DNA of 55,579 nt, taken from contig JAWLHR010000021.1 of assembly GCA_041690295.1 (NCBI GenBank), positions 1 to 55,579 on the forward strand, written 5' to 3'. This document shows, one piece after another, positions 6,333 through 50,502 of the stretch. The notes under the pieces were generated by a model. It made no database searches. It was given only the letters and a program-made list of their open reading frames with translations, and was not told the origin of the DNA. Positions within the stretch are counted from its first letter, which is position 1. Each line of letters begins with the position of its first letter. Source of the DNA: Bdellovibrionales bacterium (GTDB lineage Bacteria; Bdellovibrionota; Bdellovibrionia; Bdellovibrionales; UBA1609). Both the position numbers and the translations under genes were made by a program.

Positions 6333-8438
6333 ATGAAACGCAACGCCTGGAGACTTCTGACAGCACTGATCATTTCCGTGGCCGGTTATGCGGGGGCGGA
6401 GATTTGGTACAAATCGGGCCAAAAGCGATCCGATGATGGTTCCAAAACCGCGGTCGCCCTCTTGAACGAGTCCACCAATGAAGTGCAGCGTAAACCCAAA
6501 GCGCGCGTGATTTGGGAAAGCATCAGCCGCAATGATGAACTCTTCGCCGGCGAGGCTGTGCGCACGGCTTCTGATGCGGAAGCTAAGATATATCTCAAAT
6601 CAACCGGCGCCACCATCTTCCTCGAACCGGATTCTCTCATCGTGCTCGAGGAAAACGACAAAGGCCTGAGTCTCGATTTTCTGCAAGGAAACATGATGGT
6701 GGCCGGTGGTGAAGGCGACCTGACGGTGAAAACCGGAGCCAGCGAAATCAAACTGAAATCCGCGGAGATGAGCCTTTCAAAAGACCAAAGCGGAAAAGTG
6801 GACCTCGAGATGTATAAGGGTCAGGCCGAGTTGAGCCAGGGCGAAAAGAAGATCGCTCTTGATAACAGCAAAGCCGCCACCCTTTCGGAAAAAGGCGTGA
6901 GCGTCGCCAAAGACGTGCTCAAGGTGCTGTCCCCCAAGCCGGGAGACGCCATACTCCTCAACCTGATCCGCGGCGACCAACTGGAAATCGCCTGGCAATC
7001 GCTTCCCGAAGGTTACACGGTTTCCGCCGATGTCGGCCGCCACCGTTCCCGTCTCTCGCGGCGCGGTTCGGTTCCCGGTGAAAAGGGCAAAATGAAACTG
7101 CCGACCAAGCCGGGCAAATGGTTCTTGCGTCTGAGCGCCGAAGCCGTGAACCCTGAGTTGCCGAAGTACACGTCAGTGATCGTGCCTTTCGAAGTGCAGC
7201 CCAAAACTCCCCCGTCACTTTTGGAACCGGCCAAAGAAACCGCTTGGCTGAAAAAGTCGGCGAACGAGCCGGTGGCGTTCAAATGGTTGAATCGCCACGC
7301 TTATCAATCCCAGATTCTCGAGGTCGCCAAGGACCAGTCCTTCAAGAATGTCGTCGTGAAGCAAACTCTAACCGGCACGGACAACTCCTTCTCGGGCGAG
7401 ATTCCCGACGGACAGTATTTCTGGCGCGTGACCGGGTACCTGAACAACAACGGCCAGGTGGAAGGTTTATCCAGTCTTCCCTCACCGTTCTCGGTGGTTT
7501 CCAATTGGGAGGTCAAGCCGCCGAAAATTAAACATCCAGCTCCCGAGCAGCGGTTGAGTTTTGTGGACGTGCAACGCGCCCAAGGCGTGAATCTGAAATG
7601 GGAGCCGGCCGAAGGCGTGAAGCGCTACCGGGTTTTCGTGCAAAAACACTCCGAAAGCGGCACCAAGGAAGTTCTCAATCAAACGGTTGAAGCGCCCTTG
7701 GCCCGGATCACGAATCCCACACCGGGCACTTATCTCTGGAAAGTTTCAAGCATTGATCCCAAAGACGGAAGTGAAAAGTCTTCCGAAGTCGTTGAATTCA
7801 AAATCGATGAACTTCCGCCTATCCGCTGGGTGGAGATGAAAAATAACACTTACGAATACACAACACCCACGCCGAGTCTCGTGGCCCGCTGGGAGCCACT
7901 TGAAGTGGCGCCCGCCACTTACCGTTACCGCGTGGTGGCCGAAGGCAATTCCTTGCAGGAAGCGAAGTGGCAGACGACGAAACAAACCTTGTTCGATATT
8001 CCCCTGCCCAACGAAGGCGATTATCTGGCCGTGGTTGAAGCGTTGAACGCCAACGGGCAAGCGATCGCCGCCAGTGAAATTCGCCTGTTCACCATCAAGC
8101 CGGCACCCTTGCTCCCCGCGCCGCAATGGGCGGAAAATCTGCCGCCGGAAATCAAGTCCGATGCCCGCGGGAATTTGAGCTTGAGTTGGAAGGAAGTCGA
8201 CGGTGCCGCCAACTACCTGATGATTCTTGAAAACGACGCGGGTCAGGTGGTGGAGCAAAGAACCGTCACGCGCACGACGGCGTCGATCACCCGGTTAAAG
8301 CCCGGTGAATACCAGGTTCAACTCAAAGCCGTGGACACGCACAAGCGGCCCGGCCTGGGCAGTCCGCCCAAAAAGCTCACGGTGCCGAATGTCAGTGACA
8401 TCAAAGCACCCAAAATCAAATCGATGAAGGTGAATTAA
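6333..8438 (+). CDS. Membrane-anchored FecR-domain protein with multiple fibronectin III/Ig-like repeats
   Basis: N-terminal hydrophobic segment, then a FecR-like region (VQRK..W....LFAGEAVRT..AEAKI..LEPDSLIVL). Repeated FN3-type motifs follow (GQYFWRVT, GTYLWKVS, GDYLAVVEA, LKPGEYQVQLKA). GGAGG RBS. Confidence 0.8.
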   Translation: MKRNAWRLLTALIISVAGYAGAEIWYKSGQKRSDDGSKTAVALLNESTNEVQRKPKARVIWESISRNDELFAGEAVRTASDAEAKIYLKSTGATIFLEPDSLIVLEENDKGLSLDFLQGNMMVAGGEGDLTVKTGASEIKLKSAEMSLSKDQSGKVDLEMYKGQAELSQGEKKIALDNSKAATLSEKGVSVAKDVLKVLSPKPGDAILLNLIRGDQLEIAWQSLPEGYTVSADVGRHRSRLSRRGSVPGEKGKMKLPTKPGKWFLRLSAEAVNPELPKYTSVIVPFEVQPKTPPSLLEPAKETAWLKKSANEPVAFKWLNRHAYQSQILEVAKDQSFKNVVVKQTLTGTDNSFSGEIPDGQYFWRVTGYLNNNGQVEGLSSLPSPFSVVSNWEVKPPKIKHPAPEQRLSFVDVQRAQGVNLKWEPAEGVKRYRVFVQKHSESGTKEVLNQTVEAPLARITNPTPGTYLWKVSSIDPKDGSEKSSEVVEFKIDELPPIRWVEMKNNTYEYTTPTPSLVARWEPLEVAPATYRYRVVAEGNSLQEAKWQTTKQTLFDIPLPNEGDYLAVVEALNANGQAIAASEIRLFTIKPAPLLPAPQWAENLPPEIKSDARGNLSLSWKEVDGAANYLMILENDAGQVVEQRTVTRTTASITRLKPGEYQVQLKAVDTHKRPGLGSPPKKLTVPNVSDIKAPKIKSMKVN

Positions 8439-8441
8439 GAT

Positions 8442-10055
8442 TTGATCTCTCGGAGCGCACGTTTCTTTTTCATCGCTTTCTTCTCCTGGAGCGTGATCGC
8501 CCTCGCCCAGGACAAAACCCGTGTGCGCCGAAATGTTTACTTGGAATTCGAACCCGTGCCCGGCGCCACCTTGTACGAGGTGGAAGTGGTCCGCAAAGGT
8601 TCAAAGAAACCCATGTCGTTCAAGATGAAGAACGCCGTCTGGTCCGCCAATATCCGGCCGGGCACGTACGAGATGCGAATGCGCTCCTATGACGATCGTG
8701 GCGCGCCCGGTGAGTGGTCGGCTCCGGTGGACATTCTGGTCAAACTCCCCGCGATCATCGTTAAGGCTCCAGCACCTGACAGCACGATCAAGGCCAAAAG
8801 AGCTGAGCGTTCGGAAGTGAACTTCCAATGGGAGAAAATCCCGGGCGCCGACGCCTATGAAGTGCAAATTAAAAGCACCGACGGCACTTTCAGTTATTCA
8901 AAGAAAGTGGATGACAATTCCCACTCGGTCAAATTGGATCCCGGGCGGACTTATCTGTGGAATGCGGCCGCCCTGGACCGCAAAGGCGAACGCGGTGACC
9001 AAAGTGAAGAATTTTACCGCTTTGATTTACAGGGACCGCCCCTGGAAAAACCCAAGGTGATCAAGCCCATTTCGAAATATGTGCGCGAAGTTGAGTGGAA
9101 GCCGGCCGAGTATGCCACGAGCTATTCCTATGAGCTGCGGCGCTATGATTCGAAAAAGAAAACCTGGGATATGGTGGAGCAAAGTACGGATTGGGCCGAC
9201 ACAAAACTGAAAATGGACGTCACTCGGCCTGGCGGACGCTACCGTCTCGCCGTCCGCGCCCACGGACCGCTGCGCGAACCTTCACCAAAAAGTCAGATCG
9301 AGTTCGCCATGCACGGCGGATTCAAAGATGAAGCGGATTTCGAGAACGCGCGAGTCCGTGACAGCATGACCAAGCCCACCAATTTTTACGCCATCGCCAG
9401 TTATTTGATTACACAAGTGGCCTACAAGGCCAAAAACTATGACGATAACTCGGCACCAACTTTTGATGCCCTCGGCGGAACCGGCCGCCTCGGCATCGGC
9501 TATCAAGAGCCCCGTTCAAACTGGGGCGGATTTTTGATCGTGGATTACAGCGGCTTCATTATTAACGGGCAAAACTTTAGGTTCGCTTCCGCCGAGGCTC
9601 ACCTGACCCGCAAGCTGGAATTCGGCCAAGGTGGACTCCTTTTGTTCGGTACGGGTCTTTACTCCAAGGAGCTTCCCATCGTGGTGGGGACAACCGGTGA
9701 TGGATTCAGGGGTGTGGGTAAGGCCCGCGCCAACGGCGTGCACGCGGGATTCAGTTACTGGTTTCCGCTCAACCCCAGGCTCGGTGTCCAGGTTAATGCC
9801 CGCGCTTATCATTCGGTGTTCGGCTCCACTTCGGCGGGTTCCAATGTCATTCCCAGTTTATCTTACAGCTACGGATTGCTCGGCAGCTACCGCCTGTCAC
9901 GGAGTTGGATGGGCTATGCGGGCTACGCCTATCGGGCCGACGAAATCACCTATGAAGCTCAGAGTGGACCGCTCAGCTTCGCCAACCCCGGACAAAACAA
10001 CATGGTTGGCGTTTACGGCCACTATCTGAACTTGATTCTCGAGTGGAGTTTCTAA
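8442..10055 (+). CDS. Secreted FN3-repeat protein with a C-terminal outer-membrane beta-barrel
   Basis: Signal peptide and FN3 motifs (PGTYEMRMRS, PGRTYLWNAAA, GRYRLAVRA). The last ~220 aa are amphipathic strands ending LNLILEWSF, a BAM-type beta-signal. TTG start 3 bp after the upstream stop. Confidence 0.72.
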   Translation: MISRSARFFFIAFFSWSVIALAQDKTRVRRNVYLEFEPVPGATLYEVEVVRKGSKKPMSFKMKNAVWSANIRPGTYEMRMRSYDDRGAPGEWSAPVDILVKLPAIIVKAPAPDSTIKAKRAERSEVNFQWEKIPGADAYEVQIKSTDGTFSYSKKVDDNSHSVKLDPGRTYLWNAAALDRKGERGDQSEEFYRFDLQGPPLEKPKVIKPISKYVREVEWKPAEYATSYSYELRRYDSKKKTWDMVEQSTDWADTKLKMDVTRPGGRYRLAVRAHGPLREPSPKSQIEFAMHGGFKDEADFENARVRDSMTKPTNFYAIASYLITQVAYKAKNYDDNSAPTFDALGGTGRLGIGYQEPRSNWGGFLIVDYSGFIINGQNFRFASAEAHLTRKLEFGQGGLLLFGTGLYSKELPIVVGTTGDGFRGVGKARANGVHAGFSYWFPLNPRLGVQVNARAYHSVFGSTSAGSNVIPSLSYSYGLLGSYRLSRSWMGYAGYAYRADEITYEAQSGPLSFANPGQNNMVGVYGHYLNLILEWSF

Positions 10056-36353: not shown

Positions 36354-37788
36354 CGAACTTAAAGTTCTTCTTATCGATGATGACGAAGATGATTTCGTCA
36401 ATATCCGTGACCTTCTGGGTGACATCAAGACCGTACACTATAAGTTGACCTGGAAGGCGGATTATCGCGAAGGGCTCGAGAGTTTATTGACGGGATCCTA
36501 TGATGCCTGTCTTTTGGATTACCAGCTTGGTCAATCCTCGGGTATTGATCTCATCACCGAAGCCAATCAAGCCGGCTCCACCTGCCCGATCATTCTTTTG
36601 ACCGGTCATAGCGATTTCGATCTAGATCTAAGAGCGATGCAAGTGGGTGCCTCTGATTATCTGATTAAAAATCAAATCACGTCGGCCCTACTCGAACGCG
36701 CGATCCGATACTCCATGAAACACGCCCTGGATATGCGCGATATTTCCGAGCAAAAGGAAAACTTCAAGGTTTTATTCAATTCCACCTTCGAGGGCGTTCT
36801 CGTTTTGCGCAACGGCGGCATTATCGACGCGAACGCCGCGGCCTGCGAAATTTTCAAACGCAGCCGCGAGGAGCTTTCCGTCACCCCTTTCGAAAACCTT
36901 TTGCAACCGGAGGATCGTGAGGCGTTCAACCGTAACCTCGGCAAATCCGACACCTGGCAAATGGAAGCCGTCGGCCTCACCAGGGATGAGTCGGAAATCC
37001 ACCTCACACTGTCCGGCCGAAAGATCATGCTCAAAGGACAATGGGTGCCGATCATCGGCGTTCGTGATCAAACCATGCAGAAACAAATGGAAGCGCAAAT
37101 TCTGCAACAAGACCGTTTGGCTTCATTGGGTCTTTTGGCCTCAAGTCTCGCCCATGAGATCGGCACTCCCCTCGGAGTGATCCGCGGGCGCGCCGAAATG
37201 CTTGGTAAATCATCGGAGTCGGAAAAGGTCCGCTCCACCATGGACCTGATTGTCGGCCAGATTGATCGTATCGCCAAACTGGTGCACTCACTGCTTCATC
37301 TCGCCCGCGCCCACAACTCCGAATCGATCGTGAACGTGGATCTGGCGGAAGTGTTGGGCAATGTGATTCAACTGGTCAGCCACGAGGTGAAACGTAAAAA
37401 CATCCGATTGGAATACGAACCGCCGACCGGAATTTGGGTCCGGGCCGAAGCGGGTCCGCTGGGGCAAGTCGTTCTTAATCTGTTGGTGAACGCCATTCAC
37501 GCCATTGAAGCTAAAAAGAGCGAGAGCGAGTCCGTCATCGCCATCCGGGTCAAACAAATTGATGGTGAAACGGAAATCGCCGTTCAGGATACGGGTTGCG
37601 GAATTTCGGAGAAAAATTTTAAACGCTTGTTCCAGCCGTTTTTCACCACCAAGGAAATCGGCGTGGGGACCGGTCTCGGGCTCGCGACATCCTATAAACT
37701 CGTGAGCTCGTGGGGCGGATCAATCCGCGCCGAAAGCCGTGAAGGCGTTGGATCCACCTTCACGATCATACTGAATTCAGCCCGCTAA
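36343..37788 (+). CDS. REC-PAS-histidine kinase (NtrB-like core)
   Basis: N-terminal REC (IDDDEDD, LLDYQL), PAS, LAHEIGTPL, NAIHA, DTGCG and GTGLGL; GTG start at 36343. Confidence 0.9.
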   Translation: MVNNELKVLLIDDDEDDFVNIRDLLGDIKTVHYKLTWKADYREGLESLLTGSYDACLLDYQLGQSSGIDLITEANQAGSTCPIILLTGHSDFDLDLRAMQVGASDYLIKNQITSALLERAIRYSMKHALDMRDISEQKENFKVLFNSTFEGVLVLRNGGIIDANAAACEIFKRSREELSVTPFENLLQPEDREAFNRNLGKSDTWQMEAVGLTRDESEIHLTLSGRKIMLKGQWVPIIGVRDQTMQKQMEAQILQQDRLASLGLLASSLAHEIGTPLGVIRGRAEMLGKSSESEKVRSTMDLIVGQIDRIAKLVHSLLHLARAHNSESIVNVDLAEVLGNVIQLVSHEVKRKNIRLEYEPPTGIWVRAEAGPLGQVVLNLLVNAIHAIEAKKSESESVIAIRVKQIDGETEIAVQDTGCGISEKNFKRLFQPFFTTKEIGVGTGLGLATSYKLVSSWGGSIRAESREGVGSTFTIILNSAR

Positions 37789-39830
37789 AAGCGGAGTTCC
37801 ACGCCCGCGCCCAATTTGGTTTCCGTCAACATCAGGCCCGCCGACCAATGCCAATTGTCCGCGTACATAAGCGTGACTTCAAACTCGGTTTTATGCTCCT
37901 GGCGGAAACTGAGTTCCACATCCGAATGTACGCGCTTCGTCCACTGAAACTTCTTGTGCACATCCAACCGGGTCCGGCCTTCGTGATCCAGTAAAAACGT
38001 GGTCTCGATCAGCAGCGGAAGCGTGTAACCGAAACCCACCACTCCGTGTTGTTCTTTGTCGAAGCTTTGCCCGCCGAGCGCGAGATTGAAGTAATTGCTC
38101 ATCCAACGACGGTAAAGCAGATCGCCTTCCCATTCCCAAATGCCGACTTTGGTTTCACGGGTCTCAACCTCAGCTTCCAGAGTGTCCCAGGTTTTGGAAA
38201 GGCGAAGCTGGGCACGCGCGTGATTGGATGCGGCTTCAATCAGTCCGTTGTGGTAAATGTGATCATGCAAGTGGGGATCATGCTTTTGCAGTTTTTTGAT
38301 ATCTTCTCGCGGCGTGAAGGTGGAGTACTTGATGATTCGCGCCATGCCCGTCTTCATATGGTAAAGATTATGGCAATGAAGCATCCATTCACCGGGCTCA
38401 TCGGCTAAAAACTCGATTGTGCGAGTGGAGTGCGGTGAAACATCCACCGTGTGTTTCAGCGGCGACCGGGCCCCGTTTTTGTTCAACACCCGAAAGAAAT
38501 GGCCATGCAAATGCATCGGATGATGCATCATCGTTTCATTGACTAAAGTGAACCGGATCACATCTCCTTCGTTAATTGTGATGGTCCGATCCTGGTGAAT
38601 GGCTTTGCCGTTGATATGCCACACATAGCGTTCCATATCACCACCAAGGACCAATTTGAGGTCATGTCGTTTGTGTGAGGGCGGAAATTCAGTGGAGGCG
38701 GTGGCTTTCATTTCATCAACGGTCAGTGTGGGCAAAATAGCCGATTGACCGTGGTCTCCATGGTGGCCCTGATGTCCATGGGAATCATGAGCTCCATGAT
38801 CTTCGTGGCCACTATGATCCATGGGCGCGTAAAGATCCGGCTCGGGCCGATCCGGTGCGCGCACCTTTGGGCCCGCTCCAATCCAACCCGAAGCGAATCC
38901 GGTTCCGTCTTGGACCGTCGCGCGCAGTTCGTAATTCTGATTTTCCGGGACCGTAAACAGAACATCGTAGGTTTCGCCCATTCCCATGAGAATCTCGCCG
39001 ACCCGGCGAGGCGCCATATCGACGCCGTCCGAGGAGATCACTTCCATCGGACCATCACCGAGTGACACATAGAAATAGGACGAGGCCGCCGAATTGATGA
39101 GCCGGATTCTTATTTTTTCACCCGCTTTGGCCTCAACGAGCTGTGAATCGCGACGCCCGTTAATCAAAAAGGCGTCATATCCCACATCGGATAAATCCAT
39201 GCCGCCCATTCTGGTCCATTCATTCCAAAGAAAAGTTCCCAGGCCGCCGGAACGCAAAGCCCCCCACCATGAGCGTATGGTCCCCTTTTTGTACATGTAG
39301 TAGTCGCCGTCTTTTTTAAGATTGCGAAGAATCTGATCGGCGTTCTCATCGGACCAATCGCCAAGCACGGCCACCACCTCTTTGTCCGCTCGTATCATCG
39401 GCTTTCGTGGATGAATGACGATCGCGCCGTAAAGGCCTTTTTGCTCCTGAACTGATGTGTGGGAGTGATACCAATAGGTTCCGTGTTGGCGGATTTTAAA
39501 TTTAAAAGTGAAAGATTCGCCGGGGCGAATGGGCGGCGTGGTGACATAGGGCACACCGTCCATGAGTGGCGGCAGTAAAATGCCATGCCAATGGATGGAC
39601 ATGCTTTCATTGGGAATCTGATTGTTGACCACGATTTCCGCGTCATCCCCTTCGGTGAAGGTGAGTGTCGGTGCGGGAATCTGGCCATTCAACATCAACG
39701 CGAAATCAACTTCTTTCTTTCCACTTAAGTTCACCTTTCCACGCGTGGCCGTAAGTTCGTAACGTACAGTTTTGCCGAAGGCTTGAGGCACCACAGCGAA
39801 GGCCAACAGGGCCATGACGAACGATCGCAT
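37785..39830 (-). CDS. CopA-type multicopper oxidase fused to a CopB-like C-terminal beta-barrel
   Basis: HWHG, WYHSH, HPMHLHGH and HCHNLYH..GM; His-rich linker; C-terminal strands ending GAGVELRF. Confidence 0.9.
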   Translation of the reverse strand: MRSFVMALLAFAVVPQAFGKTVRYELTATRGKVNLSGKKEVDFALMLNGQIPAPTLTFTEGDDAEIVVNNQIPNESMSIHWHGILLPPLMDGVPYVTTPPIRPGESFTFKFKIRQHGTYWYHSHTSVQEQKGLYGAIVIHPRKPMIRADKEVVAVLGDWSDENADQILRNLKKDGDYYMYKKGTIRSWWGALRSGGLGTFLWNEWTRMGGMDLSDVGYDAFLINGRRDSQLVEAKAGEKIRIRLINSAASSYFYVSLGDGPMEVISSDGVDMAPRRVGEILMGMGETYDVLFTVPENQNYELRATVQDGTGFASGWIGAGPKVRAPDRPEPDLYAPMDHSGHEDHGAHDSHGHQGHHGDHGQSAILPTLTVDEMKATASTEFPPSHKRHDLKLVLGGDMERYVWHINGKAIHQDRTITINEGDVIRFTLVNETMMHHPMHLHGHFFRVLNKNGARSPLKHTVDVSPHSTRTIEFLADEPGEWMLHCHNLYHMKTGMARIIKYSTFTPREDIKKLQKHDPHLHDHIYHNGLIEAASNHARAQLRLSKTWDTLEAEVETRETKVGIWEWEGDLLYRRWMSNYFNLALGGQSFDKEQHGVVGFGYTLPLLIETTFLLDHEGRTRLDVHKKFQWTKRVHSDVELSFRQEHKTEFEVTLMYADNWHWSAGLMLTETKLGAGVELRF

Positions 39831-39839
39831 TTCATTCTC

Positions 39840-42116
39840 CTATCTTAAACGTAACGCATTGATGATGACGCTGACCGAACTGAGACTCATGGCGAAGCTC
39901 GCGAACATCGGACTCAGTAGAACACCAAAGAACGGATACAAGAGTCCCGCCGCGACCGGCACACCGACAGCATTATAGAAGAAAGCGAAGAAAAGATTTT
40001 GCCGGATGTTTTTCATCGTGGCGAGGCTCAGTTCATGGGCGCTGACCATGGCTCTGAGATCGCCGCGAAGAAGTGTGATTCCGGCGCTTTCAATGGCCAC
40101 GTCCGTGCCCGTGCCCATGGCCACGCCCACATGGGCCGCCGCCAGAGCCGGAGCATCGTTGACGCCGTCACCGACCATGGCCACGATATGCCCCTCCGAA
40201 ACCATGCGTTTTACGAAAAGACTTTTCTGCTCGGGCAAAACTTCGGCCTTCACCTCATCAATGCCCAAACGCTCCGCCACCGCCTTGGCAGTCCGGCGAC
40301 TGTCACCGGTGAGCATGAGCACGCGAATATGGCGCTTTTTAAAGTATTGAATCGCGTCTCGCGATGACTCCTTGATCGGATCCTCGACGGCGATCACACC
40401 GGCGGGTTTTTCGTCGATGGCAATAAATAAAATGCCCGCGCCCCTTTCAACAAATTCCTCGGCCGCTTCCGTGAGAACCGACGCCGGGGCGCCCGCGGTT
40501 TCGTTGATCAAAGAGAAATTTCCCACCACAACCGAGCGATTTTTGACCTTTCCTTTAATTCCACGTCCGGTGAAGCTGATGAAATCCGAAACCTCTCCTA
40601 GCTTTAAATTCCGTTTTTCCGCCTCGGACAACACCGCATTGGCCAAGGGATGTTCGCTCGCCTTTTCGACCGCGGCGGCGAGTTCGAGCAATTCATTTTC
40701 GCTGAACCCTTCGAGCGGTCGAATGGCCACCACCCGCGGACGGCCTTCGGTCAATGTTCCTGTTTTATCCACCACCAGCACATTGATCTTTTCAAGATTC
40801 TCAAGAGCGGCCGCGTGACGGACGAGGATTCCCGATCGCGCCCCACGACCGACGCCCACCATAATGGACATCGGAGTGGCCAATCCCAATGCGCAAGGAC
40901 AGGCGATGATCAAAACGGAAACCGCGCTCATGATGGCATAGACATAAGTGGGATGCGGTCCGTAGAGCGCCCAAAATACCGCTGCGATCACGGCCACGGC
41001 GATCACCGTCGGCACGAAGTAAGACGACACTTTATCAGCGAGAGATTGAATGGGCGCGCGGCTGCGCTGCGCTTTCGCGACAAGAGAGACGATCTGACTC
41101 AAAAGCGTTTCTTTGCCAACTTTTTCGGCGCGCATAATAAGCGTGCCCTGGCCATTCACGGTCGCGCCGGTGACCAGATCGTCCGGCTTTTTTTCCACCG
41201 GGATCGGCTCTCCGGTGATCATGCTCTCATCGACCGAGCTCAAGCCTTCGACAACCACGCCGTCGACGGGAATTTTTTCGCCAGGCCGGATCCTTAGCAA
41301 ATCGCCTTTGTGAACGGAATCGATCGCCACGTCCACTTCCCGCCCGTCCGCTTCCACCCGCCGGGCGGTTTTCGGCGCGAGTCCCAAAAGCGCCTTGATG
41401 GCGTCGCTCGTCCGCTCACGGGCCTTGAGCTCAAGAATTTGTCCGAGCAAAACCAAAGTGACGATGACGGCCGCCGCTTCAAAATAAAGCGGAACCTTTC
41501 CCGCATGATCGTAAAACTCGCGGGGCAAGGTTTCGGGAAACATCACGGCGAACAAGCTATAGGCGTAGGCCACGCCCGTGCCGATCGCGATCAGCGTGAA
41601 CATGTTTAAATTTCCCGTTCGAATCGAAGCCGCGCCCCGCTCGAAGAACGGCCAACCCGCCCAAAGCACCACCGGCGTGGCCAGGACCAACTGCACCCAT
41701 CCCGGAAGTGAGAACTGAACCCCGGGAATCATCTCCGCCATGGTCACCAGCACCAGAGGTAAGGTGAACACGGCGCTGACTTTGAATCGCCGGGTGAAAT
41801 CCACCAGCTCCGGATTTTCAGTTTCTTCCAGAGAAATTTCTTCCGGCTCGAGCGCCATACCACAAACCGGACAGGACCCCGGGCCCACTTGCCGGATTTC
41901 CGGGTGCATGGGGCAGGTGTACATGCGTTGGTCGTTGGGATCGACCGGCTCCGGGGTGGGATTCAAATACTTTTCCGGATCCGCTTTGAACTTTTCCAAA
42001 CATTTTGGATTACAAAAATAATAGGATTGGTGATCGTGGTCATATTTCCACTTGGCGGACTGAGGGTCCACGTTCATGCCGCATACGGGGTCTTTTACGG
42101 GTTCCATCCGGATCAC
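39840..42116 (-). CDS. copA: Cu(I)-translocating P1B-type ATPase with N-terminal YHS and CPMH metal-binding domains
   Basis: [35 protein letters not shown] and MSLSS. Confidence 0.95.
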
Positions 42117-42400
42117 CTTTTTTGAAATAAGGCGAGCAGCTCATTGATTTTTTCTTCGCCCGCGCGGGGATCCCGGGCGACGATCGCCTCTTTGACACAA
42201 TGGCGGATGTGCCGTTCCAAGACCAAACTTTCGGCCGAACGCAAGGCCGCCATAATTGAACGAATTTGGTTCACAATATCGATGCAATACCGGCCGCTTT
42301 CGATCATGCGTTCGACGCCTTCGATCTGACCGCGTATACGGCGAAAACGGATTAAATCCTCGCTATGGTCAGCCGCCGGACTGGCTCGCTTTCGGCCCAT
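42113..42400 (-). CDS. csoR: CsoR/RcnR-family metal-sensing repressor
   Basis: [18 protein letters not shown] and HIRHCV (C-H-C ligands); first gene of the copper operon. Confidence 0.9.
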
Positions 42401-42955: not shown

Positions 42956-44356
42956 ATGAAACTTCGGTTCGCCGGCGCCGCGAAAACCGTCACGGGCAGT
43001 CAAACGGTCGTGACTCATGGTCATCGTTCCCTACTTGTTGACTGCGGGCTTTATCAAGGGCCCAAACCAATTCGGCTGCTCAATTGGGAACAACCGTCGT
43101 ATTTTGGCGAAATCGACGCCATGATTCTCACCCACGCCCATATCGACCATTCGGGTCTGGTTCCGAGGTGGACATCTTGGGGATGGAGCGGACCGGTTTA
43201 TTGCACGGAAGCCACGGCCGACTTGCTCTCGATCATGCTTCTCGATTCCGCGCGACTGCAGGAAGAAGACGCCCGGTTCGCGGCGAAAACCAAGCACTCG
43301 CGCCACAACCCGCCGCTGCCGCTTTACACGGAAAGCGATGCGCAAGCCGCATTAAACCTCATTCACCGCTGCCCCTATGATCAATGGATGACCTTAAGCC
43401 CGGAAATGAGTTTTCGCTTTCTCCGGGCCAGTCATATTTTGGGAAGCGCGGCCGTGCAGATCGCTTACGCCGACGGTAATCAATCCCGCATTCTCACGTT
43501 CAGCGGCGATTTGGGCGGTGGGCGATCGGATCTTCTCAAGGAACCCTCACAGGTCCTTGAGTCGGACGATTTGGTGCTCGAATCCACCTACGGCAACCGG
43601 GAGATTCCGCATGAAGGCCGTGAGGAGCGGCTGGCCGAGGTCATCAACAAAGTGATTGGTCGAGGCGGCACTTTGGTCGTTCCCGCCTTCGCGTTGGGGC
43701 GCACCCAGGACCTCTTGTTTTCCATTCACCGTCTCAACAAAGGGAAAAAGATCCCCGATGTGCCGGTTTATCTGGATAGCCCCATGGCCAACGCGGTCAC
43801 CAAAGTTTACCTGAAAAATCTCGAAGAACTGCGTCTCGATTCCCTCAACAATCACATTGAGGAATCTCTCTCGACCAAATTTTTCCATGGCATCGAGGAT
43901 GCGGATGATTCCATGATGCTATGTTTGGCTCCGGAACCCAAAATCGTGATTTCCGCGTCGGGGATGTTGCAAGGGGGCCGGGTCCTTCATCATTTAAAAG
44001 CGCGGTTGCCTGATTCGAAAAACGGTGTCTTGTTCGTGGGCTTTCAAGGCAAAGAAACCAAGGGCCGCCTTTTGCAAGAAGGCATCCAATCATTGCGAAT
44101 CCACCATCAGGAAATTCCGGTGGAAGCGGAGGTTTTCACGCTCGAAGGATACTCCGCCCACGCCGACGTCAATGATCTGATCTCATGGGTGAAAGGCTTT
44201 ACCCGCAAACCGAACCGGATTTTCCTGAATCACGGCGAAGAAGAAGTGCAGAAGGAATTCGCCGAGCGCTTGCGACGACAATTCGGTGTCGAGGTGATCA
44301 TACCGGATCTCAATGAGGAAATCAGCCTCAGTCAACGGGATGCTTCATACGCGTAG
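42956..44356 (+). CDS. Metallo-beta-lactamase beta-CASP family ribonuclease
   Basis: VTGS, DCG, THAHIDHSG, HILGS, SGD, ESTYG, PAFALGRTQ, SGM..GGR, SAHAD and HGE. Confidence 0.92.
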   Translation: MKLRFAGAAKTVTGSQTVVTHGHRSLLVDCGLYQGPKPIRLLNWEQPSYFGEIDAMILTHAHIDHSGLVPRWTSWGWSGPVYCTEATADLLSIMLLDSARLQEEDARFAAKTKHSRHNPPLPLYTESDAQAALNLIHRCPYDQWMTLSPEMSFRFLRASHILGSAAVQIAYADGNQSRILTFSGDLGGGRSDLLKEPSQVLESDDLVLESTYGNREIPHEGREERLAEVINKVIGRGGTLVVPAFALGRTQDLLFSIHRLNKGKKIPDVPVYLDSPMANAVTKVYLKNLEELRLDSLNNHIEESLSTKFFHGIEDADDSMMLCLAPEPKIVISASGMLQGGRVLHHLKARLPDSKNGVLFVGFQGKETKGRLLQEGIQSLRIHHQEIPVEAEVFTLEGYSAHADVNDLISWVKGFTRKPNRIFLNHGEEEVQKEFAERLRRQFGVEVIIPDLNEEISLSQRDASYA

Positions 44357-45240
44357 TAAACCGCGAGGTTGAAAATGTCCTCGGGACTCAATTCGCGGGT
44401 CATTTCATGCATGATGGGACTGAGTCTCTCCCGGTTTCGAAAATAAAGCAGTTGGGTCATAAGGTATTGCTTGCTTTGTCCGGTCAGCATAGGAACCAGC
44501 GGATTGGCCGGCCGCCCGCCGTAAAACGGATTCATATGACAGGAGTTGCAGGCTTGGCGGGCCAGCCGCGCGCCGATTTCATATGACTCACGAATTTCCA
44601 TCGGGACTTCCTTGGGTTTATAGGGAGAACGCGAGGCAAAGTATCGCGCCAGTTCTTTGAGTTTGGCCTCACTTAAGCCCACCACCGCTTCGTTCATACG
44701 CTGAGTGGGGTCGATCCGCTCACGCCACTTGAAGCGGCGAAGTTGCAAAACCAGATACTCTTCATTTTGCCCCGCCAGTCGTGGAATCTTGGGATCGGCC
44801 GCCGACCCCGGTCCGCCTTGACCGTGGCATTGAAAACAAGATTGTAAAACGGGATCCACCGGAGGACCTTCCGGCGTTCGTTTCGCGGTTCGCGACGCAA
44901 ACTCCGGTCCGCCCAAGCGCGCCCACTGTTGAATGAGATTGCGCTCGCGTTCATCGATGGCGGCCGCCTCCGCGCTCATGGGCGGCGGCATGGATTTTTC
45001 CACATTCACTCTTTGCACCAACCGTCCGTTATCCACGTAAGCCTTGGCTTGAGCGTAATCCAAAAAGTCCGGACCGGAGCGTGACGGATGGCATCCGGCG
45101 CAGCGTTTGCCGAAAACCGCTTTCACCGTTTCAAAACTGATTCCGCCACCCGCCTCGCGCACGACGTCCACTTCTTTGTGTGGCCCCGATTTGGGTGCGC
45201 AGGAAATCAGTATTATTAAAATCCAAAACGCTTTCTTCAT
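44332..45240 (-). CDS. Triheme c-type cytochrome lipoprotein (monoheme domain plus c4-like diheme)
   Basis: Lipobox LISC; CAGCH, CFQCH and CNSCH; c4-like PRLAGQ and PMLTGQ with distal Met residues. Confidence 0.88.
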   Translation of the reverse strand: MKKAFWILIILISCAPKSGPHKEVDVVREAGGGISFETVKAVFGKRCAGCHPSRSGPDFLDYAQAKAYVDNGRLVQRVNVEKSMPPPMSAEAAAIDERERNLIQQWARLGGPEFASRTAKRTPEGPPVDPVLQSCFQCHGQGGPGSAADPKIPRLAGQNEEYLVLQLRRFKWRERIDPTQRMNEAVVGLSEAKLKELARYFASRSPYKPKEVPMEIRESYEIGARLARQACNSCHMNPFYGGRPANPLVPMLTGQSKQYLMTQLLYFRNRERLSPIMHEMTRELSPEDIFNLAVYYAYEASR

Positions 45241-46055
45241 CGCGACCGTTCCACATGATTGGCCACCGGCCGAAGTGAGCGCAAATAATCCACCACGGCC
45301 CGGCGGTCGGACTCCGTTAAAATCGCCAGCCCCTGCACCACGAAGGCCATTTCACCTCCAACCGTGCTCCGATCCGGCCGGATGCCCGAAGAAATAAAAA
45401 TCTCCCAATCCTTATCCGTCCAAGTTCCAAGCCCCGTCCAACGATCCGGAGTGATATTGGGTATCGCCAGCCCTTCGAGGGGATCGTTGGTGCCGGCCAT
45501 CCACATGGAGTCGATCAACCCGCCCAGCAAGTTCCGAGGTGTGTGGCATTCCGCGCAGTGGGCGAGCGCTTCAACCAGATAAGCACCACGCCCGAGAGCT
45601 TGCCGTTCACTGCTAAAGAACAACTGCCGCCAGAAAAACAAAAGTCGGCGCTGATTGTAGGGAAAAGCCAGCTCATGGGGGCGCCGCTCGTTCCTGACCG
45701 GCGGAACGGTTTTAAGATGGTTATAAAGTTCGCGGATATCCTCGTCGGTCATTTGTGAGTAAGCGCGATAGGGAAACGCCGGATAATAATATTCCCCCGA
45801 AGGGGAAATTCCGAAGCGAACGGCATTATAAAACTGTGTCTCGGTCCACTTGCCGATCCCCGTTTCGGGATCGGGTGTGATATTCGGAACATAAAACGCC
45901 CCAAACGGCGTGTTCAAACGCCGCCCACCCGCCAGATACTGACCAAATTCAGCCGTATGGCAATGAACGCAACCGGCGACCTGCATGATGTATTCGCCTC
46001 GGGTGATGGTTCCCGCCTGCGCGGTTATGAAAAGCGACAGAAGCCAAATCATCAT
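45237..46055 (-). CDS. Diheme c-type cytochrome, related to membrane dehydrogenase cytochrome subunits
   Basis: Signal ending AQA; RGEY..GCVHCHT, PNITPD..TGIG.W, YPAFPY and RGAYLVEALAHCAECHTPR; ATGA overlap at 46052-46055. Confidence 0.9.
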   Translation of the reverse strand: MMIWLLSLFITAQAGTITRGEYIMQVAGCVHCHTAEFGQYLAGGRRLNTPFGAFYVPNITPDPETGIGKWTETQFYNAVRFGISPSGEYYYPAFPYRAYSQMTDEDIRELYNHLKTVPPVRNERRPHELAFPYNQRRLLFFWRQLFFSSERQALGRGAYLVEALAHCAECHTPRNLLGGLIDSMWMAGTNDPLEGLAIPNITPDRWTGLGTWTDKDWEIFISSGIRPDRSTVGGEMAFVVQGLAILTESDRRAVVDYLRSLRPVANHVERSR

Positions 46056-46336
46056 GGACAGGCCTTCATCTTCGAATAGTAGGTGGTGAGTTCTTCGATG
46101 TCTTTGTCCGTCAGCTGCTTCGAGATCGGCGTCATCAGTGGATCTTCGCGCTTTTTGCTGTCGCGAAAGGCCTTGATCTGCTTGATCATGTAGGCCTTTT
46201 TTTGGCCGGCGATGTTGGGCCATAAATCGTTGGGACTGATGCCCTTTTCCCCATGGCAAGCCACACAGAGTTTGGCCTTGGCCGGCTCCGCCGCGTTCAG
46301 GCTTAATGCGTGAATCAAAATTAAAATCAAAAACAT
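46052..46336 (-). CDS. Monoheme cytochrome c553/c554
   Basis: Signal peptide, CVACHG, PNIAGQ and distal Met in LMTPI; AAGGAG RBS. Confidence 0.92.
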   Translation of the reverse strand: MFLILILIHALSLNAAEPAKAKLCVACHGEKGISPNDLWPNIAGQKKAYMIKQIKAFRDSKKREDPLMTPISKQLTDKDIEELTTYYSKMKACP

Positions 46337-46349
46337 GCTACGACTCCTT

Positions 46350-47456
46350 TCAAAGTTCGAATTGTAAAAGCGCCCATCCGGCGGATTGGCGGCCCGTGCC
46401 GATGCCCTCATCCTCGCTGGGATGAGTGGCCCGCGCCCACTCCCCGCGTGCATGGATCAATACGCCCGGTCCGATCGCCCACCGGAAACCCAATCCATGG
46501 CGTTCATAATTGTCCGCTTTGTAATCCCGGTCGGGAATAAGTAAATCGAATTTATAGATTAAAGCGAAACGATGATTGTACGCCCACTCCAGCCAAGCCA
46601 GCCAGCCTTGCGAGTGCGACTTCATAATCGATTCGCCATAGCCGGCATTGCCGACAAATCCTCTGGCCAGGGCGCGATTGCGGGCCTTCGCCTGCGCGTG
46701 TTCGAGGAGCAGAGTGAACGCCCTGTAGGTGGCCCCGGCATAGGTGCTCCAGGCCCCTTTGCGCCCGCTCGCGCCAAGCATAAATGGCGATTTCAGCCAG
46801 CGAACATTACCCAAAAGTTCCCATTGGGGGGCCTGTCCCGTATTCAACGATTGCCCGGCGAATTCGGAACCGTTGAACACGCCTAAATCCAGGTGAACGG
46901 ATTCATAAGGATTTCCCGAAAGTAAGGCTCCGGTTTCCAGCGTGTACCATTCCGTATTGGTCTGTATCCTCGTGTAGGTGCGATGCTCGTCGGTGACGAT
47001 GCCAAAAGGCACACGGAACCGGCCGATCATAATGGTTTCCAACCAACCGGGCGTGCGCCTCAGACGAAACAATCCATAGGTGTCGCGATAAGGGACCGAA
47101 GCGAAGCCCAGAACGTTGTGCTCAAGCATCAAAAAAATGCGCCCGTCCTCGTCAAGATGGGTATGGCCAGCCACGGTGCCGTTCATTAACCCCATTCCAC
47201 TTTTCGACGTCTTGGATTCTTCCGGTTGATAATAAAGAACCCGCAAATCGGCGGAAAAATAGGATTGAGCCAGGCTGGGGTTGGCGCGGAAAGTGTGAGC
47301 CCCGTAAAGTTTACCGTTTAGATTTTTTGGTCCCCCGCCAACTTGGGAGAAATGGCACGCCGTACAAGACGAAATATTGTTTTGTAAGGAATATTGAACG
47401 TAGGCTCGACTGGATTCGCTGAATACGAAAATAAGACCTATGAGTCCGAAGTTCAT
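46350..47456 (-). CDS. Cytochrome c-porin fusion (Cyc2-like architecture)
   Basis: Signal ending SRA; CTACH about 13 residues into the mature protein, followed by GGG..N..G. The rest is porin-like (IGRFRVPFG, amphipathic aromatic-rich strands, ending ALLQFEL). Confidence 0.72.
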   Translation of the reverse strand: MNFGLIGLIFVFSESSRAYVQYSLQNNISSCTACHFSQVGGGPKNLNGKLYGAHTFRANPSLAQSYFSADLRVLYYQPEESKTSKSGMGLMNGTVAGHTHLDEDGRIFLMLEHNVLGFASVPYRDTYGLFRLRRTPGWLETIMIGRFRVPFGIVTDEHRTYTRIQTNTEWYTLETGALLSGNPYESVHLDLGVFNGSEFAGQSLNTGQAPQWELLGNVRWLKSPFMLGASGRKGAWSTYAGATYRAFTLLLEHAQAKARNRALARGFVGNAGYGESIMKSHSQGWLAWLEWAYNHRFALIYKFDLLIPDRDYKADNYERHGLGFRWAIGPGVLIHARGEWARATHPSEDEGIGTGRQSAGWALLQFEL

Positions 47457-47470
47457 TTAATCGTGGTCGG

Positions 47471-47486
47471 TGCGAACACCGCGCCA
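47471..47486 (-). promoter_or_regulatory. Sigma54 promoter candidate of the cytochrome operon
   Basis: Minus strand TGGCGCGGTGTTCGCA fits GG-N10-GC; an imperfect palindrome TGGGGCAATTGTCCCCCA lies upstream at 47525-47542. Confidence 0.5.
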
Positions 47487-47748
47487 ATGACGATGAATTC
47501 TTAGCGCAGCTAATCATGAAGGCGTGGGGCAATTGTCCCCCAACGTCGCGGATCTGACCTCTATCTATCCAATTTGTGAAACCCGTCAAAAACGTCTATA
47601 CTCCGTCAACATGTGTATTTTTGGAACTTCACGAAAGAAATTTGCACACGGAGATAAGGCCTTTATTTTGCTCCGTGGCGAAATCCTAAGGATTCGCCAC
47701 GCGTTTAAAATGATGGGCTGAGTCAGCTAATTTGAAAAAGGAGTTTTC

Positions 47749-48165
47749 GTGGAACCTCAACAACCCCAAGCTCAACAAAGTCTTTTGATGACCGAACAGG
47801 ATTATGAGCGGCTCTCTCTATTGGTGCAGCATTCGGAATCGCGCGCCGCGAGCCAGCTTGAAGAAGAATTGGCCAGGGCGACGGTTTTGCCACAGGACAA
47901 GATTCCAAAAGACATCGTGACGATGAATTCGAAAATTCGTTTTGTGGATGAAGAAACCGGCAAAGAATCGGAAGTGACTCTGGTTTATCCGAAGGACGCC
48001 GATGTGACCTCACGTAAAGTGTCGGTGCTCGCCCCCGTGGGAATGGCGTTGATTGGTTTGCGAGTCGGCCAATCCATCGAATGGCCAATGCCCAACGGTC
48101 CGCGCAAATTAAAGGTAGTTTCGATTCTCTACCAGCCGGAAGCCGAAGGGCATTGGGAACTATGA
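47749..48165 (+). CDS. rnk: Regulator of nucleoside diphosphate kinase (GreA/GreB family)
   Basis: DYERL, LEEELARA, VTMNS, TLVYP and VSVLAPVGMALIGLRVGQSIEW..YQPE. Confidence 0.92.
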   Translation: MEPQQPQAQQSLLMTEQDYERLSLLVQHSESRAASQLEEELARATVLPQDKIPKDIVTMNSKIRFVDEETGKESEVTLVYPKDADVTSRKVSVLAPVGMALIGLRVGQSIEWPMPNGPRKLKVVSILYQPEAEGHWEL

Positions 48166-49187
48166 AATGGAATTTTTTAGCTCCGAACGGAGCTGATCTT
48201 TATATCGATCTTGGAACCGCCAACACCCTGGTGGTCAGCCGCGAGGGCGGAATTGTCGCCAACGAACCGTCGGTCGTCTGCTACATGGACCACGGGCCGA
48301 GGCGCGCCGTGATCGCGGTGGGCAACGAAGCCAAAGTGAAAATGGGCCGCACACCCGGCGTTATGACCGCGAGCTTCCCGCTTCGCGAAGGCGTGATCGC
48401 GGATTTGGATATCACCGAGGCGATGCTCAAATACTTCATCAGTAAGGTAGGGCCTTCCAAAATCTTCCGACCTCGGCTGGTGATGTCCCTTCCCTACGGC
48501 GTGAGCGATATCGAAAAAAGCGCGGTTCGACAGGCGGGACAGGCCGCAGGCGCGCGTGAGGTGATTTTAATTGAAGAACCGATCGCCGCCGCCATCGGTT
48601 CCGGACTTCCCGTGGCCCAACCCACCGGCAATCTGGTGATCGACATCGGCGGAGGAACCACGGAAGTGGCGGTCATTTCTCTGTGCGGAATCGTGCACTG
48701 TGAATCTGTCCGCGTCGGTGGACATGCCTTTGACCAGGCCATCGTTCACTATATTCGCAGGCAGTACAACTTGATCGTCGGTGAACCTTCGGCCGAAAGA
48801 GTCAAAATCCAAATCGGCTCGGCCATGCCCGAAGGTTATAACGCGACCGCCGAAATTCGTGGCGTGGATGCCACCAACGGGCTCCCCCGCGAGGTGACGA
48901 TCACTGCAAGCGAAGTCTATTACGCCATTGAGGATTTACTTGAGATTATTTTCGACGCTGGCCGCAGAACACTCGAAAGCACGCCGCCCGATTTGGTGTC
49001 CAGCATCCTCGAAAACGGCGCCATCGCGGCCGGAGGCGGTTCGCTGCTGAACGGCTTGGACCGTCGACTTTCCGAGGAATTAAGAATACCCGTCAAGATC
49101 GCTGAAGAACCCTTGCTGGCGATCGCCCGTGGCGGTGAAAAAACCCTGCACAATCCCCAGCTCCTCAGCAGGATCACGCTCGACTGA
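48162..49187 (+). CDS. mreB: Actin-like rod shape-determining protein MreB (orphan paralogue)
   Basis: IDLGTANTLV, EPSVV, EEPIAAAIG, DIGGGTTE and AGGGSLL; ATGA overlap with rnk. Confidence 0.9.
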   Translation: MKWNFLAPNGADLYIDLGTANTLVVSREGGIVANEPSVVCYMDHGPRRAVIAVGNEAKVKMGRTPGVMTASFPLREGVIADLDITEAMLKYFISKVGPSKIFRPRLVMSLPYGVSDIEKSAVRQAGQAAGAREVILIEEPIAAAIGSGLPVAQPTGNLVIDIGGGTTEVAVISLCGIVHCESVRVGGHAFDQAIVHYIRRQYNLIVGEPSAERVKIQIGSAMPEGYNATAEIRGVDATNGLPREVTITASEVYYAIEDLLEIIFDAGRRTLESTPPDLVSSILENGAIAAGGGSLLNGLDRRLSEELRIPVKIAEEPLLAIARGGEKTLHNPQLLSRITLD

Positions 49188-49248: not shown

Positions 49249-50502
49249 ATGGAAGAATCACGAAACGTCGTGGTCATCGGCGGCGGTATCGTTGGCGTTT
49301 GTGTCGCCCGTGAACTTCAACGCGACGGACATAAAGTCACTCTCATCGAAAAAGGCGCGATAGCTCAAGGATGTTCGTATGCCAATGCGGGCTGGATCAC
49401 GCCGTGTTTTGCCATGCCGTTGCCCCAACCTGGAATGCTGTTGAAATCGTTGCGCTGGCTCCTCGATCCGATGAGTCCTCTGCATATAAAACCCAGCCTT
49501 GATCCCGTCTTGGTGCGCTGGCTTTTACTTTTCATGGGAGCGATGACCCGTAAAAAAATGATGAAGAGCATAGAAGCTCTCACCGCGCTTTCCAAATTCA
49601 GCCTGGAATATTACGCCGAATTCGCCTCACCGAGAAAAGATGAAGTGGGGTTTCGTAAGAACGGACTTCTCATGGTCAGCGGCGATGATGAAGGTCTGGA
49701 GTACGCGCGCAAAGAAATGGATCTCATGGCCGGCCAGGGCATCGAAGGCCGGTTCATGGAACGCGATGAATTGTTGGAATTCGAACCCGTGCTCAAACCG
49801 ATTGTCAAAGGCGGCGTTTACTTTCCCAACGAAGCGCAGATCGAACCCTATACCGTAAGCCAATTCATCGCTCGCGAATTCAGCGATCACGGCGGAACCA
49901 TCCTCGCCAACACCGAGGTTTTTGATTTTAACGTTTCACCGGGTGGGAGAGTCGAAGAGATCATCACGACGCACGGAAAGATTCGCGCACCTCTCGTGGT
50001 TTTAGCTGGTGGCTCCTGGACGCCGACACTCGCGCGAAGATTGGGTCTGTCGATTCCTCTCTTGGGCGGTAAAGGTTATTCGATGTCCGTCACCAGCTCT
50101 TCACGGCGGCCGTCTCGCCCCATCATGATCGTGGATCGCAAAATCGCGGTCACGCCGCGTGCGGATTCCGTTCGCTTGGCGGGCACCTTGGAATTGGTCA
50201 ATCAGGATTTCAGCATTTCACCATCACGGCTGAACGCCATTCATCAGGGCGCCCATGAATATTTGAAGCTGGATGGTGAGGACGAACCGAGGGACATTTG
50301 GCGCGGACTCAGACCATGCACACCGGACGGCGTACCTCTGATTGGATTTTCGGATGAGGTGTCCAATCTGTTTTACTGCACAGGGCACCAAATGCTGGGC
50401 CTGCAAAGCGCTCCGGGTTCGGCCAGGCTCGCCGCCGATCTGATCGGCGGCCGGACTCCATTCACGGATCCGGCGCCGTTCAACCCTGGTCGGTACGAGT
50501 GA
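49249..50502 (+). CDS. dadA: FAD-dependent D-amino acid dehydrogenase family protein
   Basis: VIGGGIVG, CSYANAG, GKGYS, WRGLRPCTPDG and TGH.MLG. Confidence 0.82.
   Translation: MEESRNVVVIGGGIVGVCVARELQRDGHKVTLIEKGAIAQGCSYANAGWITPCFAMPLPQPGMLLKSLRWLLDPMSPLHIKPSLDPVLVRWLLLFMGAMTRKKMMKSIEALTALSKFSLEYYAEFASPRKDEVGFRKNGLLMVSGDDEGLEYARKEMDLMAGQGIEGRFMERDELLEFEPVLKPIVKGGVYFPNEAQIEPYTVSQFIAREFSDHGGTILANTEVFDFNVSPGGRVEEIITTHGKIRAPLVVLAGGSWTPTLARRLGLSIPLLGGKGYSMSVTSSSRRPSRPIMIVDRKIAVTPRADSVRLAGTLELVNQDFSISPSRLNAIHQGAHEYLKLDGEDEPRDIWRGLRPCTPDGVPLIGFSDEVSNLFYCTGHQMLGLQSAPGSARLAADLIGGRTPFTDPAPFNPGRYE

Follow-up and report, generated by a model that had tools for sequence, protein, structure and literature searches.

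The stretch of DNA analysed here (hereafter the window) is a 55,579-nucleotide contig (JAWLHR010000021.1; contig C21) of the 2.88-Mb, 99.9 % complete genome of a Bdellovibrionales bacterium (GCA_041690295.1), and its minus strand carries four co-oriented genes, headed by a fused monoheme cytochrome-porin (gene 1) and continued by three cytochrome genes (genes 2, 3 and 4; Table 1). A gap of 13 base pairs (bp; 46349-46337) separates genes 1 and 2, while ATGA overlaps occur at both the gene 2/3 and gene 3/4 junctions, and the CxxCH motifs, distributed 1+1+2+3 over the four products, provide seven heme sites. This layout agrees with an initial annotation, made from the sequence alone, in which the cluster had been described as a Cyc2-like cytochrome-porin operon and a candidate trans-outer-membrane electron conduit. 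On the best reading of its sequence relationships, gene 1 appears to represent an unannotated sister family of Cyc2, and the operon may pass electrons inward from a small soluble donor to respiration in a heterotroph, a proposition for which the case appears evenly balanced.

Table 1. Features of the cytochrome-porin locus, with positions in the window
Feature	Position	Strand	Basis or remark
Gene 1, fused monoheme cytochrome-porin, 368 amino acids	46350..47456	-	Open reading frame, fold model
Gene 1, likely signal peptide, residues 1-18	47403..47456	-	Cleavage after Ala18 suggested by conserved Ala and low pLDDT; by inspection
Gene 1, Cyc2-type heme domain, residues 19-60	47277..47402	-	CTACH at 47366-47352
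Gene 1, predicted 16-strand beta-barrel, residues 67-367	46356..47258	-	AlphaFold2 model
Gene 1, Met91, strand 2	47184..47186	-	Invariant (150/150); candidate heme or metal ligand
Gene 1, strand 5-6 loop, residues 150-161	46974..47009	-	Candidate site for binding of substrate or metal
Gene 2, exported monoheme class I cytochrome (c553/c554-like), 94 amino acids, basic, pI 9.2	46052..46336	-	
Gene 3, diheme cytochrome, 272 amino acids	45237..46055	-	Two CxxCH
Gene 4, triheme lipoprotein, 302 amino acids, lipobox Cys14	44332..45240	-	Three CxxCH
Gene 4, N-terminal monoheme domain	44896..45144	-	CxxCH, Met84-Pro, conserved Trp
Gene 4, C-terminal cytochrome c4-like diheme pair	44347..44859	-	PDB matches
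CRP/FNR-like palindrome upstream of gene 1	47575..47590	.	9/10 match to the CRP consensus; weak

The product of gene 1 contains just two cysteines, both within the CTACH motif (residues 31-35). In an AlphaFold2 model built from 88 sequences (predicted local distance difference test, pLDDT, 91.9; predicted template modelling score, pTM, 0.88), two short helices surround the CxxCH and sixteen strands extend over residues 67-367, in line with the initial annotation, which had noted a signal peptide, a single N-terminal CTACH and porin-like strands and had expected a structure prediction to yield a barrel with a heme plug. Structural comparison using Foldseek and VIA-align identified BpsOmp38 (Z 23.0, root-mean-square deviation 2.9, 271 residues aligned) and OprP (Z 22.9, 2.9, 275 aligned) as the closest solved folds of the predicted barrel, with 16-strand porins, among them also OprO, making up the top structural matches. 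PDB sequence searches with gene 1 or its profile gave nothing significant, and protein-atlas searches returned hypothetical clusters only, some of which carry a minority Porin_O_P share. Among 150 aligned relatives, all of which had been picked as full-length CxxCH-bearing matches, C31, C34 and H35 are invariant (150/150), as are Met91 and His158, and the neighbours of the latter in the strand 5-6 loop, which in general porins is the pore-constricting loop, are nearly so (Asp156, 146/150; Glu157, 148/150; Arg159, 144/150). Near-identical pieces of all four genes were present in contigs of 4/4 sequencing runs examined, from four studies, and the conservation of the CxxCH together with the recovery of the operon in these runs is more than chance. 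The genes, their motifs, conservation and linkage and the respiratory inventory were observed directly and the fold is a prediction, while heme attachment, the outer-membrane location of gene 1, electron conduction and its direction, the partners and the substrate, prey and metals included, are inferred.

No family in Pfam or NCBIfam matches gene 1, and Pfam likewise matched 0/4 canonical-motif proteins. The protein-database gene call begins at Met91 and comprises 278 amino acids, by which the heme domain is lost. An in-frame stop lies immediately 5' of the gene 1 ATG (window 47457-47500), where no clear Shine-Dalgarno sequence is seen, unlike at gene 2, and these features may be the source of the shortened call.

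According to Keffer et al. (10.1101/228056), Cyc2 joins a monoheme domain to a 16-strand OprO/OprP-like barrel, for which OprP and OprO are the reported templates, and their Cyc2 set was screened by an AxPxFAR[Q/K][T/Y] motif upstream and a PxL motif downstream of the CxxCH and by a length of at least 365 amino acids. Gene 1 shares with the Cyc2 Fe(II) oxidases (Acidithiobacillus ferrooxidans Cyc2, Mariprofundus Cyc2PV-1, Ghiorsea Cyc2TAG1 and Leptospirillum Cyt572) a signal peptide (by inspection), one N-terminal CxxCH, a predicted 16-strand OprO/OprP-like porin and a homologous heme domain, and at 368 amino acids it exceeds the published minimum. The homology of the heme domains was apparent from HHalign comparison, signal peptides removed, of the family with 30 full-length canonical-motif proteins from 120 metagenome stretches, a reference that is unnamed and biased by the search pattern (96.5 %, E 8.3e-10, 39 columns), while a c553 control reached 81 % over 18 columns. 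The G-[KR]-x-[FY] motif that follows the heme site in Cyc2 occurs in 165/176 relatives. By contrast, PxFAR and PxL were each found in 0/176 relatives; a relaxed P-x-[FY]-A is present in 138/176, and P-x-G-[GAS] stands in place of PxL in 160/176. The family thus presents PEYAxR and PxGGG where Cyc2 has PxFAR[QK][TY] and PxL, and differs further in the invariant barrel Met, the Asp-Glu-His loop, the fixed lipoprotein cytochrome partner and the heterotrophic Bdellovibrionota host. The window protein itself contains neither PxFAR nor the relaxed form. In the initial annotation, its YVQYSL was taken to replace PxFAR and to mark a divergent family. The divergence of the family stands, because PxL is absent and the barrel cannot be aligned with that of Cyc2, but YVQYSL is a real though atypical product of local drift, with the family consensus PEYAxR lying near PxFAR and a Pro occupying the position of the window's Val in 129/150 relatives.

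Barrel comparison is less favourable to a place within Cyc2. The family barrel matched those of the canonical Cyc2 proteins at 0.3-0.5 %, no better than shuffled or reversed controls, whereas the two groups of canonical proteins (21 and 8) find each other at 96.5 % over 309 columns. One canonical-motif protein (L095) likewise matches neither barrel group, and the non-match therefore does not exclude Cyc2 membership. Gene 1 could accordingly be read as a long-branch member of Cyc2 cluster 3, that is, as a true Fe(II) oxidase covered by FeGenie, a reading that overlaps the one preferred here and that would draw on the same architecture, the homologous heme domain, the length above the 365-residue cut-off and the behaviour of L095. 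It seems quite unlikely, given that PxFAR and PxL, by which the published Cyc2 set was screened, occur in none of the 176 relatives and that the barrel aligns instead with a YceI-linked family (95-98 %, about 272 columns). A profile search reached no named Cyc2. Since the two defining motif tests failed, gene 1 is not filed here as a member of Cyc2, its build being Cyc2-like. At one locus a second heme-porin (L027:8284-9603) stands in tandem after the family gene and is followed by a monoheme cytochrome; its heme domain is near-canonical Cyc2 (PxFA and PxL), with HHalign values of 96 % to Cyc2 and 48 % to the gene 1 family.

The three remaining products correspond to their initial assignment as a soluble monoheme c553, a diheme cytochrome and a lipid-anchored triheme protein with a c4-like pair. 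The C-terminal part of gene 4 consists of two tandem class I domains with His/Met-type motifs, as is expected of cytochrome c4, and matches PDB c4 structures with E values of 2.5e-41 to 2.4e-35, the best being 1h1o, the c4 that acts in the Cyc2 pathway of A. ferrooxidans. Hemes with His/Met ligation are of relatively high potential, and the Met residues conserved in the gene 4 domains fit such hemes and hence favour inward flow. The +2 lipoprotein sorting rule was uninformative for gene 4, since an ACIII lipoprotein of the same genome also lacks Asp at +2. In the rus operon and Cyc2-Cyc1 pathway (cyc2, cyc1, cup, coxBACD, rus; as listed in PMC13741234), a cytochrome-porin gene is similarly followed by that of a c4-type diheme cytochrome, and oxidases are likewise present in the genome studied here. 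In contrast to the rus operon, a lipid anchor and a third heme domain are joined to the c4 pair, rusticyanin and oxidase genes are missing from the cluster, and c553-like and dehydrogenase-type diheme proteins are added.

Gene 3 shows homology (E 2.9e-48) to heme domains one and two of the cytochrome c subunits that belong to membrane-bound dehydrogenases of fructose, glucose and alcohol, and likewise of aldehyde, but the third heme of these subunits is lacking. It belongs to a large stand-alone family, with 3,654 matches among 8,000 candidates scored. The Met that follows heme 1 in the fructose dehydrogenase subunit is a heme ligand; gene 3 has Phe at this site, as do 116/120 homologues. In one homologue (L002:8473-9345) Arg replaces the His of the first heme motif, which suggests that its heme 1 is atypical or dispensable. 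Dehydrogenase subunits of this kind reduce ubiquinone in acetic acid bacteria, according to PMC9171043, and the literature searches retrieved no structural paper on a quinone site in gene 3 homologues. No catalytic partner was found in the genome, where the gluconate-dehydrogenase gamma subunit (PF13618) and MoCoBD_1 (PF02738) were looked for without a match; PQQ partners were not searched. The single GMC flavoprotein of the genome sits beside a gene resembling a BCCT transporter (names by inspection) and is likely a choline dehydrogenase. The absence of a flavoprotein or molybdoenzyme partner near the operon, as noted in the initial annotation, holds as far as plausible partners are concerned, although the opposite strand encodes a DAO-family flavoprotein (49249-50502) at a distance of 1.8 kb upstream. 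No signal peptide is seen in this protein and it is not plausible as an operon partner.

Fifty-three genome loci of gene 1 homologues were confirmed, and in 47 of these the porin has a cytochrome gene no more than about 1.5 kb away (34/37 where at least 1.5 kb is available on both sides), in line with the expected linkage of homologues to cytochrome genes. Together with the predicted barrel and the conserved CxxCH, this linkage means that none of the three outcomes named as refuting the initial reading was obtained. The most regular neighbour of the porin is the N-terminal heme domain of gene 4 (39/53 loci when scored by profile; in 38 the gene edge lies within 1.5 kb), with a lipobox pattern in 36/39 of these partners, while gene-2-type cytochromes occur in at least 25/53 loci and gene 3 in 5/53. 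The gene-4 partner varies, containing one to five hemes and being placed before, after or divergently from the porin, and it persists despite changes of order and strand; other neighbours recur in no more than five loci. The five loci with gene 3 share the four-gene order of the window and fall in its clade. Of the four-gene synteny, the pairing of porin and lipoprotein cytochrome is thus conserved but the full order is confined to these five loci, and the seven-heme form is a derived expansion of that core. Copper genes were also considered as conserved context and rejected, a heavy-metal ATPase lying near 1/53 loci and a multicopper oxidase and CsoR-type repressor near none. At one locus the porin gene stands between those of two long, mutually related exported proteins (L044:4991-6454 and 7738-9729); the one that was scanned contains a CxxCH and gave no match in Pfam.

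With gene 3 in the operon, electrons could conceivably be disposed of outwards at low oxygen, from the quinone pool through gene 3 to the porin heme and on to soluble Fe(III) chelates, quinones or prey-derived acceptors. Such a direction would accord with the ubiquinone-reacting relatives of gene 3 (PMC9171043), the MtrAB-based iron reduction proposed for other Bdellovibrionota (PMC13200544), the one Cyc2 reported at -130 mV (PMC13692758) and the organic-rich habitats of the host. It is nonetheless distinctly improbable, considering that gene 3 is found in only 5/53 loci and that no protein of the source genome contains more than five CxxCH motifs. Cytochromes of the c4 and c553 types with conserved Met are, moreover, usually found on the oxidase side.

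The source genome encodes two more heme-porins (C2:115195 and C23:32891), in modules (C2:114276-116286, L055; C23:31725-34350, L056) that each comprise YceI and one or two small lipoprotein cytochromes. The C2-type heme-porin aligns with the gene 1 family over its full length (HHalign, 99.4 %), was matched in 61/121 genomes of the phylum, and retains the strand-2 Met and loop His in 26/26 sister proteins. These as yet unnamed heme-porins occur in Bdellovibrionota and other phyla and, like the gene 1 family, often have a small lipoprotein cytochrome as neighbour. They differ in their partner, with YceI found at 27/30 loci of the sister type and at 0/53 of the gene 1 family, which has c4- and c553-type partners instead. 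One YceI-type module (L076:1209-8177, genome G121) is enlarged by an 863-residue tetraheme lipoprotein and a diheme lipoprotein, and has the genes of a PBP-superfamily binding protein and a Porin_5 protein on its flanks.

Searches for relatives of gene 1 returned 91 and 150 sequences, the nearest belonging to the Bdellovibrionales, and the confirmed loci comprise 52 of Bdellovibrionota and one of Myxococcota. Among 301 genomes of the phylum, a set that overlaps partly with the 53 loci and includes kin that are not independent, strong matches (E < 1e-50) occur in 22, the source genome counted, and any match below E 1e-5 in 173, while 0/3 congeners of the source genome matched the family. Two family members appear split over two frames (L047:6899-8199 and G225:C1:215312-216513), either through assembly error or as pseudogenes. 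Barrels without a CxxCH domain were also observed (L074:4770-6274 in genome G002, P0201, P0211 and P0215), all of which retain the strand-2 Met and loop His; the L074 gene comes after a PSCyt1 monoheme lipoprotein gene. In a quick tree (62 rows, Shimodaira-Hasegawa-like approximate likelihood ratio test, SH-aLRT, only; four loci without a full heme-bearing frame left out), these four barrels nest, tentatively and on a long branch, inside the gene 1 family. Met91 and His158 need therefore not serve the fused heme. The barrel could be a metal-handling pore, binding Fe, Cu, Mn or Zn at a Met/His/Asp/Glu site for uptake or detoxification, with the heme shifting the redox state of the metal and the cytochromes merely supplying or removing the electron. 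The persistence of both residues in 4/4 heme-less barrels and 26/26 YceI-type sisters would suit such a pore, as would a weak match (E 2e-9, Z=1000) of the family profile to a porin upstream of metal-ABC-transporter-like genes (genome G210), and the multicopper oxidase, heavy-metal ATPase and CsoR-type repressor encoded 2-6.5 kb downstream in the window. Those copper genes are, however, hardly encountered at homologue loci, as counted above, none of the TonB, Feo or ABC families is a recurrent neighbour of the homologues, and as many as six additional hemes would seem a high price for taking up traces, by which metal handling is considered unlikely.

The host is apparently heterotrophic and possibly predatory, as initially proposed. 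It has Bdellovibrionales kin, from which it is probably a predator itself, and encodes HMG-CoA reductase and pilus/type II secretion system (T2SS) platform genes, while RuBisCO and NiFe hydrogenase were not found in the genome; other carbon-fixation routes were not searched. Its respiratory complement includes ACIII, cbb3 and caa3 oxidases, a diheme cytochrome c peroxidase, cytochrome P460 and two copper-oxidase/cytochrome c fusions, which were read as NirK. These two NirK-like genes, the peroxidase and the P460 might also point to scavenging of gases or oxidants, in which an open-site plug heme and heme 1 of gene 3 would bind or reduce NO, peroxide or O2 during prey attack, and the Phe in place of Met in gene 3 and 116/120 homologues would fit an open site. 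Such gases pass the outer membrane without a dedicated pore, and the invariant Met91 and His158 could supply a sixth ligand. Cyc2 models show one axial heme ligand only (PMC13741234), which would favour an open site, but purified Ghiorsea Cyc2 is reported to be low-spin with two axial ligands (PMC13692758), and scavenging appears very unlikely as the function of the operon. About nine copies of a 298-residue transposase-like open reading frame starting CPYCH are distributed over other contigs of the source genome (G000 C3, C4, C5, C6, C7, C10 and C11), several at contig ends, and produce false heme-motif matches.

The preferred mechanism is inward transfer of electrons. Gene 1 would form a 16-strand outer-membrane porin whose N-terminal Cyc2-type domain would hold a covalent heme where the pore opens to the periplasm. 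The donor, a small soluble reductant, would come in through the pore, settle close to the strand-2 Met and the conserved Asp-Glu-His loop, and hand one electron to the plug heme, from which it could be taken by the first heme of the lipid-anchored gene 4 protein and passed to the c4 pair and then to the gene 2 cytochrome. Final sinks, encoded at other places in the genome, may be the NirK-like enzymes, the peroxidase or one of the cbb3 and caa3 oxidases, and gene 3, present in the closest clade only, may be an optional link to the membrane quinone pool. By analogy to Cyc2, Fe(II) is the single most likely donor, with reduced quinones, humic compounds or other metal ions as further candidates. 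That Fe(II) is the physiological donor is nevertheless rather unlikely, because of the organic-rich habitats, the barrel unlike that of Cyc2 and the wide range of Cyc2 potentials. Contact with solids, electrodes or prey surfaces without a shuttle also seems unlikely, as a single heme sits in a narrow barrel, an argument made for Cyc2 by Keffer et al. (10.1101/228056). The MtrAB, MtoAB and PioAB conduits similarly pair an outer-membrane barrel with a periplasmic multiheme cytochrome but, as outlined in the same source, employ a barrel of 26 strands with a separate decaheme protein inside it. With sixteen predicted strands and one fused heme, gene 1 is unlike this type, for which reason it would be unlikely to reach solids or electrodes. 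As no RuBisCO was found, the pathway would provide extra energy to a heterotroph, probably a predator, and would not sustain lithoautotrophy.

Several observations weigh against this mechanism. According to PMC13692758, Cyc2 potentials span -130 to +560 mV, and the architecture therefore does not fix the direction of electron flow; no Cyc2 structure had been solved according to a 2026 review (PMC13741234), and Keffer et al. (10.1101/228056) regard the function of divergent Cyc2 homologues as most uncertain. Alongside the barrel mismatch at control level and the tentative nesting of heme-less barrels that keep Met91 and His158, the gene 4 anchor cannot be assigned to the inner or outer membrane from the +2 residue, the family is patchily distributed (22/301 strong matches, 0/3 congeners), and the runs with near-identical DNA are labelled compost, wastewater and invertebrate gut, which are not iron-rich settings.

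Regulatory and contextual features add little. The score of the palindrome upstream of gene 1 is equalled in 5/500 background regions and 1/50 homologue upstream regions, and no shared FNR/CRP box was found among the homologue upstream regions or respiratory operons. Promoter and terminator scans of the locus were at or near chance level, GC content gives no sign of an island, and a plasmid tblastn gave no match. The end of gene 4 overlaps a convergent beta-CASP RNase gene by 25 bp, and beyond it the minus strand (37785-42400) encodes a 681-residue multicopper oxidase with an extra C-terminal region, a heavy-metal P-type ATPase with a YHS domain and a CsoR-type repressor. Divergent from the operon, an MreB-family gene (48081-49187, plus strand) directly follows a GreA/Rnk-type gene, with no mreC-like gene seen behind it.

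Literature searches retrieved no paper on the gene 1 family, although its sequences could lie in subscription papers, in bioRxiv supplements or among the figshare files on Cyc2, and a search pairing Cyc2 with YceI found nothing. A term search of two papers on Cyc2 evolution (PMC10654088, PMC12442345) gave no mention of Bdellovibrio, and the accessible text of an Antarctic soil preprint (10.1101/2020.08.06.239558) draws no link between Cyc2 and Bdellovibrio. Extracellular electron transfer by Bdellovibrionia is a matter of speculation in a preprint (10.1101/2022.03.26.485925), and MtrAB homologues are reported in magnetotactic Bdellovibrionota (PMC13200544).

It is possible, though doubtful, that predatory Bdellovibrionota possess their own unrecognised branch of Cyc2-type heme-porins, present in as many as three copies per genome and found in more than half of the genomes sampled. 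These porins would harvest electrons across the outer membrane from prey-derived or environmental reductants and send them through interchangeable periplasmic modules (a c4/c553 relay, a dehydrogenase-type diheme protein or YceI) towards oxidases or quinone. If so, the Cyc2 architecture would serve redox purposes at the envelope in general, iron oxidation being one among them. Cyc2 serves as a marker of iron oxidation, and a sister family of like build with another motif and another barrel would alter the reading of cyc2-like matches, the more so as standard annotation overlooks the family, with no Pfam or NCBIfam match and a database gene call that omits the heme domain. The invariant Met91 and His158 offer a handle on the question of the sixth heme ligand in the Cyc2-type fold. 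Should the sister family hold, heterotrophic and probably predatory hosts in compost and sludge would tap inorganic or shuttle electrons, or else the fold would do other work.

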